From positions 1 to 64,000 of IMG/VR virus record IMGVR_UViG_3300029955_000013: a stretch of 64,000 nt of DNA; one strand, 5' to 3'. This DNA comes from a virus. The first letter of the stretch is position 1. Each line of letters begins with the position of its first letter. Made by a program: the position numbers and the translations under genes. This document shows, in pieces, positions 43,839 to 63,937 of this stretch. The notes beneath the pieces are model-generated. The model was given only the letters and a program-made list of their open reading frames with translations. It ran no database searches and was not told the origin of the DNA.

Positions 43839-44762
43839 ATGAATTTGAATTTAGGTAAACAGAAATTTTTTGTGATCTATCAGATTACCAATTTATTGAA
43901 TGGTAAGATTTATGTCGGTGCACATTGTACTTATGATGTGAATGATAAGTACATGGGTAGCTCCAAACACCTCAAAAAAGATATTAAAGAGTTAGGCCGA
44001 CAGAATTTTGCGAAGGAGATTTTACATGTCTTTGACAATAAAGAAGACATGATGGCAAAAGAGGCAGAAATTGTTGATCAAGAGTTCTGTCATCGAACTG
44101 ATACTTACAATCGTATGATTGGCGGGATAACAGAAATGTTATGGAATAATATGGTTTCGGTTCGAGATAAGGATGGAAACTATTTGAAAGTGTATAATGA
44201 TGATCCGCGTTATCTTTCCGGAGAATTTGTTGGTTGTACTAATGGTTTTGTTCCAGTAAAAGATGTTGAAGGAAATTTTTTACAAGTTGCTAAAGATGAC
44301 CCACGTTATTTGTCTGGTGAATTAGTTAGTTCTGCAAAAGGAATTTTTAACGCCAAGGATAAAGACGGTAATGTTTATCAAATCAGTAATAAAGATATAA
44401 GGTGGTTATCTGGAGAGTTGGTTGGATTAACTGCTGGTTTACATGGCAATTGTGCGTTCAGTGGTAAAAAACATTCAGAAGAAACAAAAGCCAAGATCGG
44501 AAAGAAAAATTCTTTAGCTCAAAGTGGAAGTGGTAATTCAATGTTTGGTAAAAAGCAAACAAAAGAATCTAACGATAAACGGCTTGATAAGATGGGTAAA
44601 AGTTTTTTTGTATTTGATACTGATGGCAATTTTATTTCGCAAGAATTTGGAATAAATCAATATGCGAATAAAAATAACTTAACTGCCACAAGCATTGTTC
44701 AGTGTTTGAAAGGTAAACAAATAAGTCATAAAGGTTTTAAGTTTTTATACGAAAATATTTGA
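43839..44762 (+). CDS. GIY-YIG homing endonuclease with NUMOD-type repeats
   Basis: VIYQITNLLNGKIYVG, YMGS; D.R.LSGE.VG x3; GKKHSEETKAKI, NSMFGKK. Confidence 0.85.
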   Translation: MNLNLGKQKFFVIYQITNLLNGKIYVGAHCTYDVNDKYMGSSKHLKKDIKELGRQNFAKEILHVFDNKEDMMAKEAEIVDQEFCHRTDTYNRMIGGITEMLWNNMVSVRDKDGNYLKVYNDDPRYLSGEFVGCTNGFVPVKDVEGNFLQVAKDDPRYLSGELVSSAKGIFNAKDKDGNVYQISNKDIRWLSGELVGLTAGLHGNCAFSGKKHSEETKAKIGKKNSLAQSGSGNSMFGKKQTKESNDKRLDKMGKSFFVFDTDGNFISQEFGINQYANKNNLTATSIVQCLKGKQISHKGFKFLYENI

Positions 44763-47055: not shown

Positions 47056-47148
47056 ATGAACAACAAGGTAAACATATTGATATTAGGCACCGAAGGCACA
47101 ACAGAGATTCTCGAAGGAATCCACTGGCTCCCAGCTCTATGTTCGTAA
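47056..47148 (+). CDS. Putative attenuator leader peptide MNNKVNILILGTEGTTEILEGIHWLPALCS
   Basis: 30 codons between promoter and terminator; 3' end overlaps predicted antiterminator; codons match downstream tRNAs. Confidence 0.7.
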   Translation: MNNKVNILILGTEGTTEILEGIHWLPALCS

Positions 47149-50252: not shown

Positions 50253-50324
50253 TGTACTATAGGGTAGTGGTAGCCCGTCGGCATCAACAGCCGAAGATCT
50301 CAGGTTCGATTCCTGGTAGTGCAA
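50253..50324 (+). tRNA. Atypical tRNA with CAA anticodon (Leu) on Gln-like body
   Basis: TGTACTA/TAGTGCA-A; TCGGC-AT CAA CA-GCCGA; short variable loop. Confidence 0.6.
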
Positions 50325-50330
50325 CAATTT

Positions 50331-52596: not shown

Positions 52597-53376
52597 ATGA
52601 GCGTTATTGATGAACTTTGGAAACCTCAGCAAGAATCCGTTCACGATTATGACGACACTGTAAAAGAACTGCATCCGTACAAGGATTATATCCAGGAGAA
52701 GTATCGGCCGGAGCCTTGCGATTACAACAATTCGCCGCCTCGTTTTTATTATGGTTATGGCAACAGTTCTATTTTAATCACCAAGCAGCGTGGAAGGCGT
52801 AGGCATCTTGGGAAGCATATCATCATCAAAAAGACGCTTAAAAGCACCTATCTCGATTTTGAGCTTCCTGACAAACTTTACGTTACTGTAGAGGGTTTGA
52901 TCGTACATGAAAGCGATTTCTATTGTACTGATGACTCGTTCATGGAGGCGGAATACTTTACTAACAAGTCCATTTACCTGCAGTTTAAAGACGTTAGTTG
53001 CGACATCAACTTAATAGCTTATTTCTTGACCAATAAGGAGTATGATGATTACGAGAAGGAAGACTATCGGTATAGGAGCATGGGCATGATGAGTCCTGTG
53101 CTGGAAATTTACAAGTATCTGCACGAGGGTCGTTCGAAGATAGAGATCGTTTACTGCAATACCTTCTTTGATGATCCGAACAAGCATGTCATAAATAACA
53201 TGTTAAATACGAGTAAGTTTTTGATAGACCCGGTGGCCCCAATCGTACAAAGTGTTTGTGATCTCGGCCGGCATCTGTTCGTCAGCTCTAATGGTTACAT
53301 CTGTCACTGGAAGTTTTATACCAGATTAGATACAGACTTACTGATAAGACATGCTAAAAAACTTGTATTTCTATGA
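52597..53376 (+). CDS. Hypothetical protein
   Basis: Long ORF coupled to next gene. Confidence 0.6.
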   Translation: MSVIDELWKPQQESVHDYDDTVKELHPYKDYIQEKYRPEPCDYNNSPPRFYYGYGNSSILITKQRGRRRHLGKHIIIKKTLKSTYLDFELPDKLYVTVEGLIVHESDFYCTDDSFMEAEYFTNKSIYLQFKDVSCDINLIAYFLTNKEYDDYEKEDYRYRSMGMMSPVLEIYKYLHEGRSKIEIVYCNTFFDDPNKHVINNMLNTSKFLIDPVAPIVQSVCDLGRHLFVSSNGYICHWKFYTRLDTDLLIRHAKKLVFL

Positions 53377-53864
53377 ACATATTTGTGCTCGGCGGTACCA
53401 AGTCCGGTAAATCCACCATTGCGAAGTATATTGCTGATACGTATGGCTTCAAACTCATACAGATGTCCAAGCCGCTGAAAGATAGGTTCGAGCGTGGGGA
53501 TCTGAACATAGACGTTTACACGAACATGTTGGTTAAGACCACGCTTAGTTACATAGGTTCCAAAGAGAGGCGTAAATCTGAGTATTTCTTGAATTACGCT
53601 TTGCTGGAAATGGGGCCTAATAATGTGTTCGACGGTGTGCGGAACCCTCGTGACTTCATGAGGCTTTTCAATCACTTCGAGGACATGGTTATAAAGATGC
53701 CTGGCGAAGGCATAAATGCTTTTGAGGTGGATGGCTTAAGAGCTATATTCGGCTGCCACAGGTATATGTACAAGTACATGAGCGCAAAGCCGCTGATCAA
53801 GTACCATTACGATCTGGAGCTATCCATAGAGGAGAATTTCCAGAACAACAAAATAGTCATTTAA
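53373..53864 (+). CDS. P-loop nucleoside monophosphate kinase-like protein
   Basis: GGTKSGKST Walker A; DGVRN..D. Confidence 0.7.
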   Translation: MNIFVLGGTKSGKSTIAKYIADTYGFKLIQMSKPLKDRFERGDLNIDVYTNMLVKTTLSYIGSKERRKSEYFLNYALLEMGPNNVFDGVRNPRDFMRLFNHFEDMVIKMPGEGINAFEVDGLRAIFGCHRYMYKYMSAKPLIKYHYDLELSIEENFQNNKIVI

Positions 53865-58368: not shown

Positions 58369-58447
58369 GGTGAGGTGATGGAATTGGCAGACATTGGGGA
58401 TAGGATTCCCCTGCGCAAGCGTGGAGGTTCGAGTCCTCCCCTTACCA
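58369..58447 (+). tRNA. Leu-type tRNA body with aberrant 6-nt anticodon loop (TAGGAT)
   Basis: TGATGGAATTGGCAGACAT D-arm, variable arm GCGCAAGCGT, A73; anticodon unreadable. Confidence 0.55.
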
Positions 58448-58462
58448 CTTAAATTTAACGTT

Positions 58463-59707: not shown

Positions 59708-59780
59708 GGCACTGTAGACCAACGGGAGAGTCAACGGCTTTAAACCCCGTCAAGTGTCGGTTCGAGTCCGACCAGTGCTA
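59708..59780 (+). tRNA. tRNA-Leu(TAA), short variable loop
   Basis: ACGGC-TT TAA AC-CCCGT; GGCACTG/CAGTGCT-A. Confidence 0.8.
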
Positions 59781-59794
59781 CAAAAAATAAAAGC

Positions 59795-60820: not shown

Positions 60821-60893
60821 GGTCCTGTAGCCCAATGGCAGAGGCGATAGGCTTAGAACCTATTTAGTGTCAGTTCGAGTCTGACCAGGACTA
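60821..60893 (+). tRNA. tRNA-Leu(TAG), short variable loop
   Basis: ATAGG-CT TAG AA-CCTAT; GGTCCTG/CAGGACT-A. Confidence 0.88.
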
Positions 60894-60908
60894 CTTTAAA
60901 ATGAGCAA

Positions 60909-61570: not shown

Positions 61571-61642
61571 AATCGAGTACCTCAGAGGCCAGAGGCCAGA
61601 GGGATCGACGGAAAGTCGGTGGTTCGACTCCACTCTCGATTT
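61571..61642 (+). pseudogene. tRNA-like RNA with intact acceptor, D and T arms but no anticodon stem
   Basis: AATCGAG/CTCGATT; CCTC/GAGG; GGTGG-TTCGACT-CCACT; CAGAGG repeated 3 times. Confidence 0.6.
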
Positions 61643-61657
61643 CAATAAATTATTCAC

Positions 61658-61966
61658 ATGATAGTCAAGAAGAGATTTCCAAGTTTTTTCAGCGGCTACG
61701 AGGCCGACAAGACGATACACGAGGTATCTACGCATGATGAGCTGATGGAAATAAATTGGGTAAAGGACAAGGTTAAAATTCCAGGTCACATTGGGATTTT
61801 CTACTCGAAGATTCACTTGAACGATACGCCTTATTATCTCATGGCTCTTTCCAAAAGTGATAAAGAAATTATTTATTCTGTTATAGGATACGTGTACGGT
61901 GATGCGGCCCTTTTAGGTTTGACCGACTATACAGACTATATCAAGAAATACAACAGTACCAAGTGA
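61658..61966 (+). CDS. Hypothetical protein
   Basis: Clean ORF. Confidence 0.6.
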   Translation: MIVKKRFPSFFSGYEADKTIHEVSTHDELMEINWVKDKVKIPGHIGIFYSKIHLNDTPYYLMALSKSDKEIIYSVIGYVYGDAALLGLTDYTDYIKKYNSTK

Positions 61967-62012
61967 AATTAGCTGTACCGCTTCAAGAGATAGTGGAGTT
62001 TGCGGTACGAAT

Positions 62013-62114
62013 GCCCGGTTGGCGAAACTGGTAGACGCACTGCCTTGTACTTTTAACGAGGAACAAGGTGGCAGCGCCCGAAAGGGTGTGGGAGTTCGAA
62101 TCTCCCATCGGGTA
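62013..62114 (+). tRNA. tRNA-Leu with 25-nt anticodon loop; Leu(GAG) if 62048-62065 is removed
   Basis: Canonical Leu D-arm, long variable arm, A73; CTGCC/GGCAG stem encloses TTG[18 nt]AGGT. Confidence 0.7.
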
Positions 62115-62184
62115 GGAGTATAAAGTTAATACCTGCACGTGGTATGCTCTGCACACAGATTTATTCTGTGACTAAATTTAACTT

Positions 62185-62421
62185 ATGATCGCGGAATTTA
62201 CTGACGACCTGGTTGATTTCGTCGATCACCATGATTGTTCCATGCACCTCGACATGTTCGACAGCGCCAAGGATAAGGTTTTTAAGTTCGGCGACTGGAA
62301 GCTTAGGTTTGTCCACGACGAAATTGCTGATTGTGATGTTTTTTACGTTTCTTTGATCTCAGATTTAAAGAGACTGAACAATGAGTACAAGCCATACCCG
62401 AATTCCGGAAAGCCTCGATGA
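62185..62421 (+). CDS. Hypothetical protein
   Basis: ORF with AT-rich leader. Confidence 0.5.
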   Translation: MIAEFTDDLVDFVDHHDCSMHLDMFDSAKDKVFKFGDWKLRFVHDEIADCDVFYVSLISDLKRLNNEYKPYPNSGKPR

Positions 62422-62785
62422 GGCGGTAGACATAATAGTATCAAGCACCTCGCCGGAGGTGATAGAGAAATACAAGACCCTCACTGAAAAAGAGATCCTC
62501 AGCGGATCGCACCACTCGCTCGGCATGAGCATTAGGAACAACTGGCACCTATGGTGGGAGGAAAGTCATACTTACGATGAGTGGCCAAAAGAAAAACCAA
62601 AGTTAGTAGAAGAGTTTAATGCGCTCGGCATATACCATGCAGACGACATGAGCGGCATCATATTGTCTTCCGCCATAAGGCGGATACAGGACAAGCCACG
62701 TAAGCTCAATGAGGAAGTTGCGAAGTACAAGAAGTTCTGGGCGAAGCAGGGCTTCGAGGATGGGATATTTAAACCTAAAAAATAA
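62381..62785 (+). CDS. Hypothetical protein (DUF6794-like)
   Basis: P..LDEA, HH.LGM.IRN.W.LW, GI.H.DDMS.II. Confidence 0.7.
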   Translation: MSTSHTRIPESLDEAVDIIVSSTSPEVIEKYKTLTEKEILSGSHHSLGMSIRNNWHLWWEESHTYDEWPKEKPKLVEEFNALGIYHADDMSGIILSSAIRRIQDKPRKLNEEVAKYKKFWAKQGFEDGIFKPKK

Positions 62786-62800
62786 TTATATTTTACATAA

Positions 62801-63937
62801 ATGTTTGGACAGATTAACACAAGGAAGGACTTGCCGCACTATGGTTACCCTTCGATCGAGCAGTTTAGGACGGTGATACACAATGTGAACCACAAGGCTC
62901 ACTACGTTGGCCAGGACGAGAACGGAGATGCCATATACGATCAGACGAGACAGAAGCCGACGCTAAAATTCATCGGTACCACGAAGCTGCATGGCACTAA
63001 CTGCGCGGTGGTAATTGACATCAAGAACGAGATAGTTTACTTCCAGTCGAGAGATAACGTGATAACGCCGGCTGAGGACAATGCGGGAGCAGCTACTTAC
63101 CTCGCCTCTATACAGCAGGACATTGTGAATATGGTTAAGGAGGTGATCCAGGAAGAATTCTACGCAAACGAAGTGTATAATTTCACGATACTCGAGACTA
63201 TGCACAAAGAGGACAAGAACAAGTTCGATACGATAGTTATTTACGGCGAGTGGTGCGGCGGCAGCATTCAGAAGGGAGTGGCTTTGAACGGGCTTGACAA
63301 GATGTTCGTAGTGTTCGACGTCGCCTTCATAGACAGCACCGCCGAGATAAAGCACAAGCGCTGGAAGTCTTACGATTTCGTGCAGAGGATCAAGTTGCCA
63401 AGCAAGAGGGTTTACAACATACTCGACTACAAGGTTTGGGACATCGACATCGATTTTAAGGCGCCTACGTTGTCGCAAAATGATTTGATTGACATAACTA
63501 CTGAGGTTGAGGCTCACTGTCCCGTTGGGCTTGCTTTTGGCAAGGATGGCATAGGAGAGGGAGTTGTTTGGAAGTGCATTACGCCGCCCTACGACGGTGA
63601 TTCGGGCTACTGGATGAAGGTCAAGGGGGAGAAACACTCTTCCTCGAAGGTGAAGACAATTGCGGCAGTCGATGTTGAGAAAGTAAGGAACGTGATTGAG
63701 TTCGTCGACAACGTCGTGACGGAGAGCAGGTGTCTGCAGTCGATCGACAAATTGAGGGAGGCTGGCAAGCCGCTGACGAGAGCGAGCCTCGGCGATTACC
63801 TCAGGTGGATATTCAACGACATCGTAAAGGAGGAGACCGACACGATGGTCGCGAACGGCATAGAGGCCAAGGCTGTTGGCGGTGCGATTTCCAACAAGGC
63901 GAGGGAGTGGTTCTTCGCGAACGAGTTGAATTTTTAA
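62801..63937 (+). CDS. RNA ligase, Rnl2 family
   Basis: Motif I TKLHGTN, FQSR, YGEWCG, FVVFDV, EGVV, KVK; C-terminal helical domain. Confidence 0.88.
   Translation: MFGQINTRKDLPHYGYPSIEQFRTVIHNVNHKAHYVGQDENGDAIYDQTRQKPTLKFIGTTKLHGTNCAVVIDIKNEIVYFQSRDNVITPAEDNAGAATYLASIQQDIVNMVKEVIQEEFYANEVYNFTILETMHKEDKNKFDTIVIYGEWCGGSIQKGVALNGLDKMFVVFDVAFIDSTAEIKHKRWKSYDFVQRIKLPSKRVYNILDYKVWDIDIDFKAPTLSQNDLIDITTEVEAHCPVGLAFGKDGIGEGVVWKCITPPYDGDSGYWMKVKGEKHSSSKVKTIAAVDVEKVRNVIEFVDNVVTESRCLQSIDKLREAGKPLTRASLGDYLRWIFNDIVKEETDTMVANGIEAKAVGGAISNKAREWFFANELNF

Follow-up and report, generated by a model that had tools for sequence, protein, structure and literature searches.

In the closest precedent that we found, Lak megaphages, 'enigmatic' introns were described in tRNA genes, where they are conserved across cohorts and one of them maybe encodes a tRNA (Devoto et al. 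2019, PMC6784885). Apart from this Lak report, phage tRNA introns that are short and spliced by proteins did not turn up in our search of the literature. An interruption between nucleotides 34 and 35 is known from cyanobacterial and plastid tRNA-Leu(UAA), in which this site is occupied by a group I intron. To our knowledge, the tRNA introns so far described from bacteria and phages are all self-splicing, protein-dependent splicing being an archaeal and eukaryal hallmark, and we know of no demonstration of protein-dependent tRNA splicing in bacteria or phages.

Removal of an intron by proteins depends on the ends that the nuclease leaves and on the ligase that receives them. The splicing endonuclease EndA, which bacteria lack as far as we know, leaves a 2',3'-cyclic phosphate and a 5'-OH, and these ends cannot be sealed by an Rnl2-type ligase without healing enzymes. 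RNase III-class enzymes leave 3'-OH and 5'-phosphate ends, and we know of no RNase III-made break that is re-ligated into a tRNA. The preferred substrate of T4 Rnl2 is a nick in a duplex. In the tRNA repair of phage T4, a normal tRNA under host attack is cut by PrrC, healed by Pnkp and sealed by Rnl1. As to substrate length, E. coli RNase III requires 11 bp or more from cut to loop (T7 R1.1, minimal 34-nt substrate; PMC1540722), and the usual RNase III substrates span about two helical turns (PMC1540722).

The locus described here belongs to a large phage from peat soil, near-identical DNA of which is found in many peat metagenomes. Its source is an IMG/VR virus record of 83.9 kb, judged to be ∼41% complete, and the window, i.e. 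the whole stretch of 64,000 nt that was analysed, is the first 64 kb of this record. The record contains a tmRNA and 27 tRNAs (ARAGORN) together with further tRNA-like genes, in a block that extends from ∼43 to 78 kb, and in most tRNAs of this phage CCA is not encoded. One gene of this block is a tRNA-Leu whose anticodon is interrupted by 18 nt, with the following features.

62013-62114, + strand: class II tRNA-Leu(GAG), interrupted (Rfam RF00005 alignment and sequence reading).
62013..62047, + strand: 5' half, with the acceptor strand, Leu-type D arm, 5' strand of the anticodon stem and U32 U33 G34 (Rfam and homologue alignments).
62048..62065, + strand: insert of 18 nt, TACTTTTAACGAGGAACA, between G34 and A35 (missing in cellular homologues).
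62066..62114, + strand: 3' half, with A35 G36 G37 U38, the 3' strand of the anticodon stem, variable arm, T arm, acceptor strand and A73 (Rfam and homologue alignments).
62013-62019/62107-62113, + strand: acceptor stem, 7 bp including two G-U pairs.
62022-62038, + strand: D arm of Leu type, 3-bp stem, with the loop AAACTGGTAGA typical of tRNA-Leu.
62040-62044/62070-62074, + strand: anticodon stem, 5 bp, CTGCC/GGCAG.
62045-62069, + strand: anticodon loop, 25 nt versus the usual 7.
Between anticodon stem and T arm, + strand: variable arm of 15 nt with a 4-bp stem.
62090-62106, + strand: T arm, perfect, TTCGAAT.
62114, + strand: A73; CCA is not encoded.

A long-arm Leu tRNA with a 25-nt anticodon loop was the starting claim of the original prediction, and it is borne out both by our reading of the sequence and by the Rfam tRNA model, since RF00005 (gathering score 29) matched 62013-62114 under permissive filters with 38.9 bits (E 6.3e-7, model positions 1-71), leaving 21 nt of the anticodon loop unaligned. 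Default ARAGORN and an Rfam gathering run with fast filters made no call at 62013-62114. In the tRNA body all stems are paired and the conserved bases of the D- and T-loop are present. The gene as encoded has no anticodon loop of seven nucleotides, and such a loop appears only once 62048-62065 is removed; after deletion of these bases in silico, ARAGORN calls a canonical tRNA-Leu(GAG). The intron mode of ARAGORN proposed a tRNA-Val(AAC) with a 15-nt intron, which we rejected as a mis-parse, as it relies on a shifted stem rich in G-U pairs and contradicts the Leu(GAG) homologues.

The insert splits the GAG anticodon between nucleotides 34 and 35, as indicated by three independent lines that agree. 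Contigs of four peat runs (DNA contigs only) were aligned to 61600-62900. Phage contigs from all four peat samples carry the insert, and their tRNA shows no difference at all, the strains being near-identical. The same peat runs also contain contigs with cellular tRNA-Leu(GAG) genes, which align over 62012-62047 and 62066-62112, with breaks exactly at 62047|62048 and 62065|62066. Beyond the aligned parts their sequence is '...ACTACCTTG' before 62066 and 'AGGTGGTAG...' after 62047, i.e. they run across the gap as '...CCTTG' and 'AGGTGG...'. In addition, a scan of one genome per prokaryote species (GTDB) for the uninterrupted junction followed by the variable arm gave two genes, one of which is the tRNA-Leu(GAG) of a Bdellovibrionales metagenome-assembled genome. 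This gene has an identical D arm, an anticodon arm CTGCT-TTGAGGT-GGCAG with uninterrupted loop, and the same start of the variable arm; with the insert removed, the phage gene differs from it at 1 of 17 positions in the anticodon arm and at 2 of 15 in the variable arm. A shift of the boundary by one base would give AAG, likewise a CUY reader, and the homologues point to GAG. Thus, the uninterrupted cellular homologues fix the boundaries, and both halves of the anticodon have been kept precisely. The expectation that deletion of 62048-62065 leaves a normal Leu(GAG) loop is therefore upheld by the homologous contigs, the Bdellovibrionales gene and ARAGORN. The insert itself is unique in the 83.9-kb record, with no second copy at up to 4 mismatches and no similarity to flanking or other phage DNA, which suggests that it is not a typical fresh mutation; if the insert is old, the perfect tRNA body implies selection.

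Whether the phage has a use for a Leu(GAG) tRNA was judged from the other tRNAs of the record and from a short reading frame at the head of the tRNA block.

50253-50325: tRNA with anticodon CAA (ARAGORN, whole record).
59708-59781: tRNA with anticodon UAA (ARAGORN, whole record).
60821..60894, + strand: tRNA with anticodon UAG (ARAGORN, whole record).
64952-65035, just beyond the window: second tRNA with anticodon CAA (ARAGORN, whole record).
47056..47148, + strand: leader ORF of 30 codons at the head of the tRNA block (sequence reading).

By standard wobble pairing these other Leu-anticodon tRNAs (CAA twice, UAA and UAG) read neither CUU nor CUC. The interrupted gene is the sole candidate for a CUY reader in the phage tRNA set, and GAG is the only Leu anticodon class that is otherwise missing. 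According to the same ARAGORN run over the whole record, other isoacceptor families are complete (Thr UGU/CGU/GGU, Glu UUC/CUC and Ser UGA/CGA/GGA/GCU). Codons CTT and CTC make up 23.9% and 17.9% of the Leu codons in 92 long ORFs, together 41.8%. The leader ORF contains the Leu codons TTG, TTA, CTC, CTC and CTA, i.e. the Watson–Crick partners of CAA, UAA, GAG and UAG, and the two CTC codons noted previously in this peptide are indeed present at 47056-47148. That five Leu codons cover exactly these four classes has a probability of ∼0.016 given the codon usage of the phage, for a test that was chosen post hoc, and the argument from the leader codons leans on the leader being a putative attenuator. 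The make-up of the tRNA set, the codon demand and the leader codons argue against an origin as decoy, and they are equally compatible with splicing and with a recent disablement of the gene. Not far from the interrupted gene, at 61571-61642, there is a degenerate tRNA-like gene whose anticodon arm is unrecognisable; degenerate tRNA-like genes in this region mean that decay does occur there.

The structure of the unspliced RNA was predicted by folding the whole tRNA, and the minimum-free-energy fold contains one additional element.

62040..62071, + strand: extended hairpin predicted for the unspliced RNA (minimum-free-energy fold of the whole tRNA).

Above a 9-bp helix (62040-62048 with 62063-62071) this hairpin has an A/A mismatch and then a tip of 4 bp, two of them G-U, closed by a UAAC loop, and the hairpin drawn in the original prediction (CCTTGT-A-CTTT-TAAC-GAGG-A-ACAAGG) is identical with it. 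The whole-tRNA fold has a free energy of −42.8 kcal/mol (z −2.9) and preserves the acceptor, D, variable and T arms; for the stem-loop alone the value is −12.6 kcal/mol with the insert versus −7.0 kcal/mol without it. Inserts that fold as well at the same site were obtained in 2.9% of cases for shuffled, 8.9% for random and 9.8% for genomic 18-mers. By these predictions the stability of the hairpin appears only weakly unusual, marginally above chance (p ∼0.03–0.10). Only three or four of the pairs between insert and exon are new, and the CCU/AGG complementarity is a feature of every Leu(GAG) loop. The predicted fold hides the anticodon bases in a helix of ∼13 bp, and thus the unspliced RNA, as modelled, cannot decode.

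Four pairs, U32-A35, U33-A62065, G34-C62064 and U62048-A62063, are found in the predicted fold and in every register that we drew by hand. Taken together with the boundaries from comparison, these pairs place the two boundaries at an offset of 2 bp, so that in the predicted fold an excised 18-mer would be a hairpin with a 2-nt 3' overhang, and the exon stem would be likewise overhanging. Products of this geometry are those of RNase III-class enzymes. By a rough estimate, a 2-bp stagger would arise by chance in about one in five cases for an arbitrary insert that spans a helix.

The ligase gene on which the original prediction relied lies downstream of the interrupted tRNA.

62801..63937, + strand: RNA ligase of the Rnl2 family, 687 nt downstream of the tRNA (Pfam PF09414, RNA_ligase, E 4.5e-17).

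It had been placed ∼700 bp from the tRNA and assigned to the Rnl2 type, and both statements stand: the distance is 687 nt, and in addition to the Pfam match a profile match to T4 Rnl2 (2hvq) was obtained at E 5.6e-12, with a TIGR02307 score well under the cut-off. By these profiles the product of 62801-63937 is a distant relative of Rnl2, and we regard it as no more than a candidate for the sealing enzyme. Its homologues number more than 2500, many of them on contigs of more than 100 kb, and the closest have 56–59% identity. In IMG/VR, tRNAs lie within 10 kb of the Rnl2 homologue at 20 of 80 loci. The density of tRNA or tRNA-like genes in the block is ∼29 per ∼31 kb, and a tRNA at most 700 bp upstream is to be expected with roughly even chance for any given gene of it. 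Owing to this density, and to the frequent location of Rnl2 homologues in tRNA islands, the closeness of the ligase is no evidence of a functional link.

TRNA and ligase are separated and surrounded by genes (DUF6794, DUF7448 and unknowns) that are not conserved beside the ligase in relatives. The ORF at 61658-61966, which ends 47 nt before the tRNA, encodes 102 aa and belongs to a small conserved family of ∼20 members, the homologues of which stand beside tRNAs in 1 of 6 loci, i.e. not regularly. Its structural neighbours in the ESM Atlas were all RelE/ParE/MqsR/BrnT toxins, but the model had a pLDDT of 0.44; this lead to a RelE-like RNase was dropped, as an AlphaFold model (18 homologues, pLDDT 91) had no match in the PDB (best Foldseek E 0.42, best VIA Z 3.5). 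In the 83.9-kb record, which represents ∼41% of the genome, there was no match for RNase III, EndA (PF01974), an AAA_33 kinase or another nuclease, and a six-frame search of the record gave no match for Tpt1 (PF01885). Likewise, no kinase-phosphatase or other end-healing gene was found in the 83.9 kb (∼41% of the genome); the only kinase-like match of the neighbours in Pfam, PHROGs and NCBIfam is a weak dNMP-kinase-like P-loop at 53373-53864. No antisense splint of at least 10 nt across the spliced junction is present in the 83.9 kb.

Homologues with an insert at the same 34/35 position had been suggested as a check, and this check was run with a negative outcome: none was found anywhere that was searched, and the nearest cellular homologues are without the insert. 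In IMG/VR the pattern CTGCCTTG-N8-30-AGGTGGCAG returned chance matches and normal tRNAs only, and the pattern GGTAGACNC-N6-YTG-N8-38-AGGT-N18-32-GTTCRANTC had 11 matches, none of them interrupted. The 17-mer of the D arm occurs in IMG/VR in normal tRNA-Leu genes and in prophage attachment junctions, without insert. No match for the tRNA was obtained by blastn in the INPHARED phages, no orthologous interrupted Leu(GAG) at 160 loci around Rnl2 homologues from IMG/VR and metagenomes, no tRNA with an insert at 34/35 in the whole records of the nearest IMG/VR relatives, and no tRNA with an insert in this context in the GTDB species genomes. At L339, where the ligase is 59% identical, scans found no tRNA upstream. 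As far as these searches reach, the interrupted tRNA-Leu(GAG) is a singleton of one phage population.

Other unusual tRNA genes came up in these searches. The IMG/VR pattern TGGTAGACGC-N46-75-GTTCGAATC gave at least 118 matches, which are RNAs in the shape of a tRNA whose D arm is of Leu type and whose middle is hypervariable. Further interrupted tRNAs occur in huge phages that carry Rnl2: a type I tRNA of 111 nt with 34 extra nt in the context CTG...AGGT (L257:18756-18866), a tRNA of 104 nt with a 31-nt insert that contains a perfect 8-bp hairpin (G038:C1:34700-34803), and a tRNA-like gene of 137 nt with a perfect palindrome of 20 nt (L247:3635-3771). These inserts are unlike one another in position and form, and a search for close uninterrupted homologues, by which their boundaries could be fixed, gave none. 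The element L340:528-632 lies 2.5 kb upstream of an Rnl2 homologue. It was considered as an orthologue and rejected: its D arm is of Leu type, but an anticodon arm is missing and the Rfam tRNA model does not match.

In our reading the insert would be a short protein-dependent intron, which the original prediction offered beside a chargeable decoy and which we put forward tentatively as the single most likely explanation. It is favoured by the flawless tRNA body, the exact halves of the anticodon, the demand for a CUY reader, the codons of the leader, the non-duplicative nature of the insert and the precedent in huge phages. In the mechanism that we propose, the helix would be cut by a hydrolytic endonuclease of double-strand type, which would come from the host or from that 59% of the phage genome which is not sequenced. 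One strand would be cut behind G34 and the other behind the final base of the insert, i.e. with an offset of 2 bp. An 18-nt hairpin with a 2-nt 3' overhang would be released, the exons would be left with 3'-OH and 5'-phosphate ends, and an ATP-dependent RNA ligase, e.g. the Rnl2-like enzyme of the phage, would join G34 to A35. The product would be a GAG isoacceptor for CUC and CUU, which is absent from the rest of the phage set. With 3'-OH and 5'-phosphate ends from an RNase III-class cut, Rnl2-type sealing could do without a kinase-phosphatase. Sealing by Rnl2 has against it that, in the modelled structure, the cut ends would sit in a loop and not at a duplex nick. The complete scheme, in which a new kind of protein-dependent intron is removed by a staggered cut of a helix and rejoined by Rnl2, and a 'masked' tRNA-Leu(GAG) thus stays hidden, until it is matured, from host defences that target tRNA, seems to us unlikely to hold in all of its parts.

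Several observations that count against splicing, namely that the gene is a singleton, that the hairpin is near chance and that the genes for a nuclease and for end healing were not found in 83.9 kb, are also those on which a different explanation can be built. A working tRNA-Leu(GAG) may have been knocked out by an insertion of 18 nt and not yet have decayed, its RNA being without a role, and the insert may be a scar left by some larger element, e.g. a group I intron. The original prediction left out this disabled gene, and the data are compatible with it; we consider it a somewhat unlikely account but a serious rival. Searches of IMG/VR and GTDB without a conserved relative, a hairpin barely above chance and the failure to find a splicing enzyme in the 83.9-kb record are what would be seen if the gene were simply broken. 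The phage has, moreover, redundant and odd tRNAs, and a neighbouring tRNA-like gene has an anticodon arm beyond recognition; strain data are too shallow for showing constraint, and a function in the recent past would account both for the lack of just the GAG class and for the CTC codons of the leader. These points have to be set against a gene in which every stem and every conserved tRNA base is intact. The insert is not a duplication, which makes a fresh slip improbable, and if the insertion were old, decay should have followed; the insert is fixed in all phage contigs of four samples, and loss of the only CUY reader would run counter to the codon usage of the phage. As for the scar of a group I intron, the 5' exon ends in G, not U, and there is no terminal G. 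An actual group I intron was rejected, the insert having 18 nt and no match to an Rfam intron family even at E up to 10, and so the earlier statement that it is far too short for such an intron is correct.

If the RNA is not spliced, it might also be the functional product itself, a non-decoding mimic of a tRNA in which the arms read by LeuRS are kept and the anticodon is masked. LeuRS largely ignores the anticodon (E. coli), and such an RNA, chargeable or bound by protein, might serve as a decoy or sponge for a host defence that targets tRNA, or as a donor of leucine. An intact body with A73 and a Leu-type D arm, together with an anticodon buried in the predicted helix, would suit this role, as would the tRNA-shaped IMG/VR matches (at least 118) with Leu-type D arm and hypervariable middle, one of which (L340) is near an Rnl2 homologue. 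Unlike these other tRNA-shaped RNAs, however, the present gene has kept exact halves of the anticodon stem-loop and a normal variable arm, for which a decoy has no need; a loop that is masked would make a poor lure for anticodon nucleases, and neither a partner gene nor evidence of conservation was identified. A mimic is less probable, in our judgement, and we regard it as unlikely, though likewise as a serious rival. An intron of the archaeal type, with a bulge-helix-bulge cut by splicing endonuclease, is extremely improbable. A relaxed 3-4-3 motif can be drawn, with the helix U32-A35, U33-A, G34-C, U-A and the bulges ACU and GGU, its 3-nt 3' bulge adjoins the intact anticodon stem, and the product is accepted as a tRNA by ARAGORN; but the cuts (62050|62051 and 62068|62069) would give the loop UUGUACU, in which a Leu body would carry a GUA (Tyr) anticodon followed by C37; on the side of the intron, the outer helix consists of just U-A, U-G and U-G, and an EndA domain was not found in the record (∼41% of the genome). 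The earlier remark that no clear bulge-helix-bulge is visible thus agrees with our result, the one that can be drawn giving a wrong anticodon loop.

Decoding by this RNA requires that the insert be excised and the ends be rejoined, and sequence alone cannot separate splicing from disablement. If the tRNA is spliced, as the reading as protein-dependent intron holds, a new route of RNA maturation would be at hand, and with it a natural job and a physiological substrate for Rnl2, the role of which in phages is unsettled. If it is not spliced, tRNA islands of huge phages would carry freshly disabled or repurposed tRNAs.

In comparison with known systems, the peat phage shares with the group I intron of tRNA-Leu(UAA) a bacterial-type tRNA-Leu that is split between 34 and 35, whereas group I introns have ∼200 nt or more and a conserved catalytic core, and the insert here has 18 nt, with a 5' exon that ends in G and without a terminal G. 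Archaeal and eukaryal tRNA introns are similar in that they, too, are short, lie in the anticodon loop, pair with the region of the anticodon and depend on an endonuclease plus a ligase for removal; their canonical site is 37/38, and that of the peat insert 34/35. The hairpins cut by RNase III would have in common with the structure predicted here a 2-nt 3' overhang on the excised part and 3'-OH and 5'-phosphate ends, but the peat hairpin has only ∼6 positions above the cut, including the A/A mismatch and two G-U pairs, and ∼13 bp in all. With ∼6 instead of the required 11 bp, it would be too short for E. coli RNase III.

Like T4, the peat phage has a gene for an RNA ligase among its tRNA genes, and the break proposed here would be, as in T4, in the anticodon loop by position 34. 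Here, in contrast to T4 repair, the ligase is Rnl2-like, no Pnkp was found in 83.9 kb, and the break is proposed to be a step of programmed maturation. In the tRNA-shaped RNAs without anticodon the arm is replaced, whereas the peat tRNA keeps both halves of the Leu(GAG) stem-loop as well as the variable arm. The introns of Lak phages are closest in kind, as they too occur in very large phages, are inserted in the anticodon loop, are no recognisable self-splicing introns and are known from gene prediction and alignment with uninterrupted copies; the peat insert differs from them in having 18 nt, in splitting the anticodon (34/35), in having been seen in one phage population only and in lying in a phage unrelated by sequence. 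Huge phages with short non-ribozyme inserts in their tRNA genes have been reported before, with the mechanism not explained, and what is distinctive of the present case is the combination of sharp boundaries fixed by homologues, a split anticodon, the position as only candidate to read CUY, the commonest Leu codons of the phage, and a ligase of Rnl2 type for which no end-healing enzyme was found in the 83.9 kb.

The interrupted tRNA-Leu gene at 62013-62114 is not the only tRNA-shaped element of irregular build in this phage, and two further features upstream of it are listed here.

Features upstream of the interrupted tRNA-Leu gene (window coordinates)
61571-61642, plus strand: extra tRNA-like gene, Rfam tRNA match of 34.1 bits, overlooked by ARAGORN
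61658-61966, plus strand: 102-aa ORF, just upstream of the interrupted tRNA-Leu gene

In the tRNA-like gene, acceptor, D-like and T arms are good, the place of the anticodon arm is taken by 17 nt without an anticodon-arm fold, a tandem CCAGAGG repeat is present and the discriminator is U. One peat contig (run X3, a metagenome run with near-identical phage DNA) matches the gene from 61609 on and is divergent upstream of 61609, so strains vary in exactly that part of the gene. The protein of the 102-aa ORF is one of ~20 members of a small conserved family (33-50% identity). AlphaFold models it with confidence (pLDDT 91), and no solved structure was found to match the model. A homologue of this ORF in one phage of 357 kb is followed after a 10-nt gap by a tRNA-shaped element of 169 nt with a very large extra region (L556:4305-4473).

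Elements of related kinds were located in other viral and metagenome loci fetched for comparison (L and G handles).

tRNA-like elements in comparison loci
L257:18756-18866: interrupted tRNA(-like) gene, insert of 34 nt
G038:C1:34700-34803: interrupted tRNA(-like) gene, insert of 31 nt that includes a perfect 8-bp hairpin
L247:3635-3771: interrupted tRNA(-like) gene, insert of ~49 nt that includes a perfect palindrome of 20 nt
L257:18598-18673 (= G012:C1:24843-24918): tRNA-like gene, overlooked by ARAGORN
L257:19353-19431 (= G012:C1:25598-25676): tRNA-like gene, overlooked by ARAGORN
L340:528-632: element of 105 nt; acceptor stem, D arm and T arm present

The three phages bearing the interrupted genes are huge and each carries a homologue of the Rnl2 RNA ligase; sites and shapes of their inserts are unlike those of the insert at 62048-62065. 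In the two genes overlooked in L257, acceptor and T arms are normal and an anticodon-type hairpin stands immediately 3' of the acceptor strand. The D arm of the L340 element is nearly identical to that of the interrupted tRNA-Leu; no anticodon arm is recognisable in this element, and the Rfam tRNA model does not match it. Its contig, 172 kb long, carries an Rnl2 homologue (50% identity) 2.5 kb downstream of the element, and no ordinary tRNA was found near by.

When IMG/VR viral contigs were scanned with the pattern TGGTAGACGC-N46-75-GTTCGAATC, at least 118 matches were obtained (L122-L239), and in most of the matches listed an acceptor stem close to AGTCAGG recurs together with a Leu-type D arm and a T arm, the middle of 46-75 nt being hypervariable (for example L129:162-227, minus strand). 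These matches form a large class, either of tRNA-shaped phage RNAs or of tRNAs with very long arms.

Further genes of note lie in the tRNA block of the phage.

Further genes of the phage (window coordinates unless marked)
43839-44762, plus strand: GIY-YIG/NUMOD homing-endonuclease-like gene
50253-50325: short tRNA, anticodon CAA (Leu)
58369-58448: 80-nt tRNA gene, anticodon AGG (Pro codon reader)
59708-59781: short tRNA, anticodon UAA (Leu)
60821-60894: short tRNA, anticodon UAG (Leu)
record 72615-72986 (L121:8615-8983): small protein, weak S4/TyrRS C-terminal-like RNA-binding domain
record 75386-75688 (L121:11386-11685): small protein, same weak domain

Both small proteins are encoded among Ser and Met tRNA genes, and the homing-endonuclease-like gene directly follows the phage tmRNA gene. 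The AGG gene has Leu-like D and variable arms, and its anticodon sits in an irregular loop. The three short tRNAs, only 73-74 nt in length, are without the long variable arm of bacterial tRNA-Leu.

Bacterial tRNA-Leu(UAA) genes are themselves the place where many provirus ends terminate (IMG/VR loci L419-L538, e.g. L444 and L497), the break point being immediately past the anticodon loop, where ...GGGACTTAAAATCC is followed by unrelated DNA; these ends are integration junctions at the tRNA-Leu anticodon loop.
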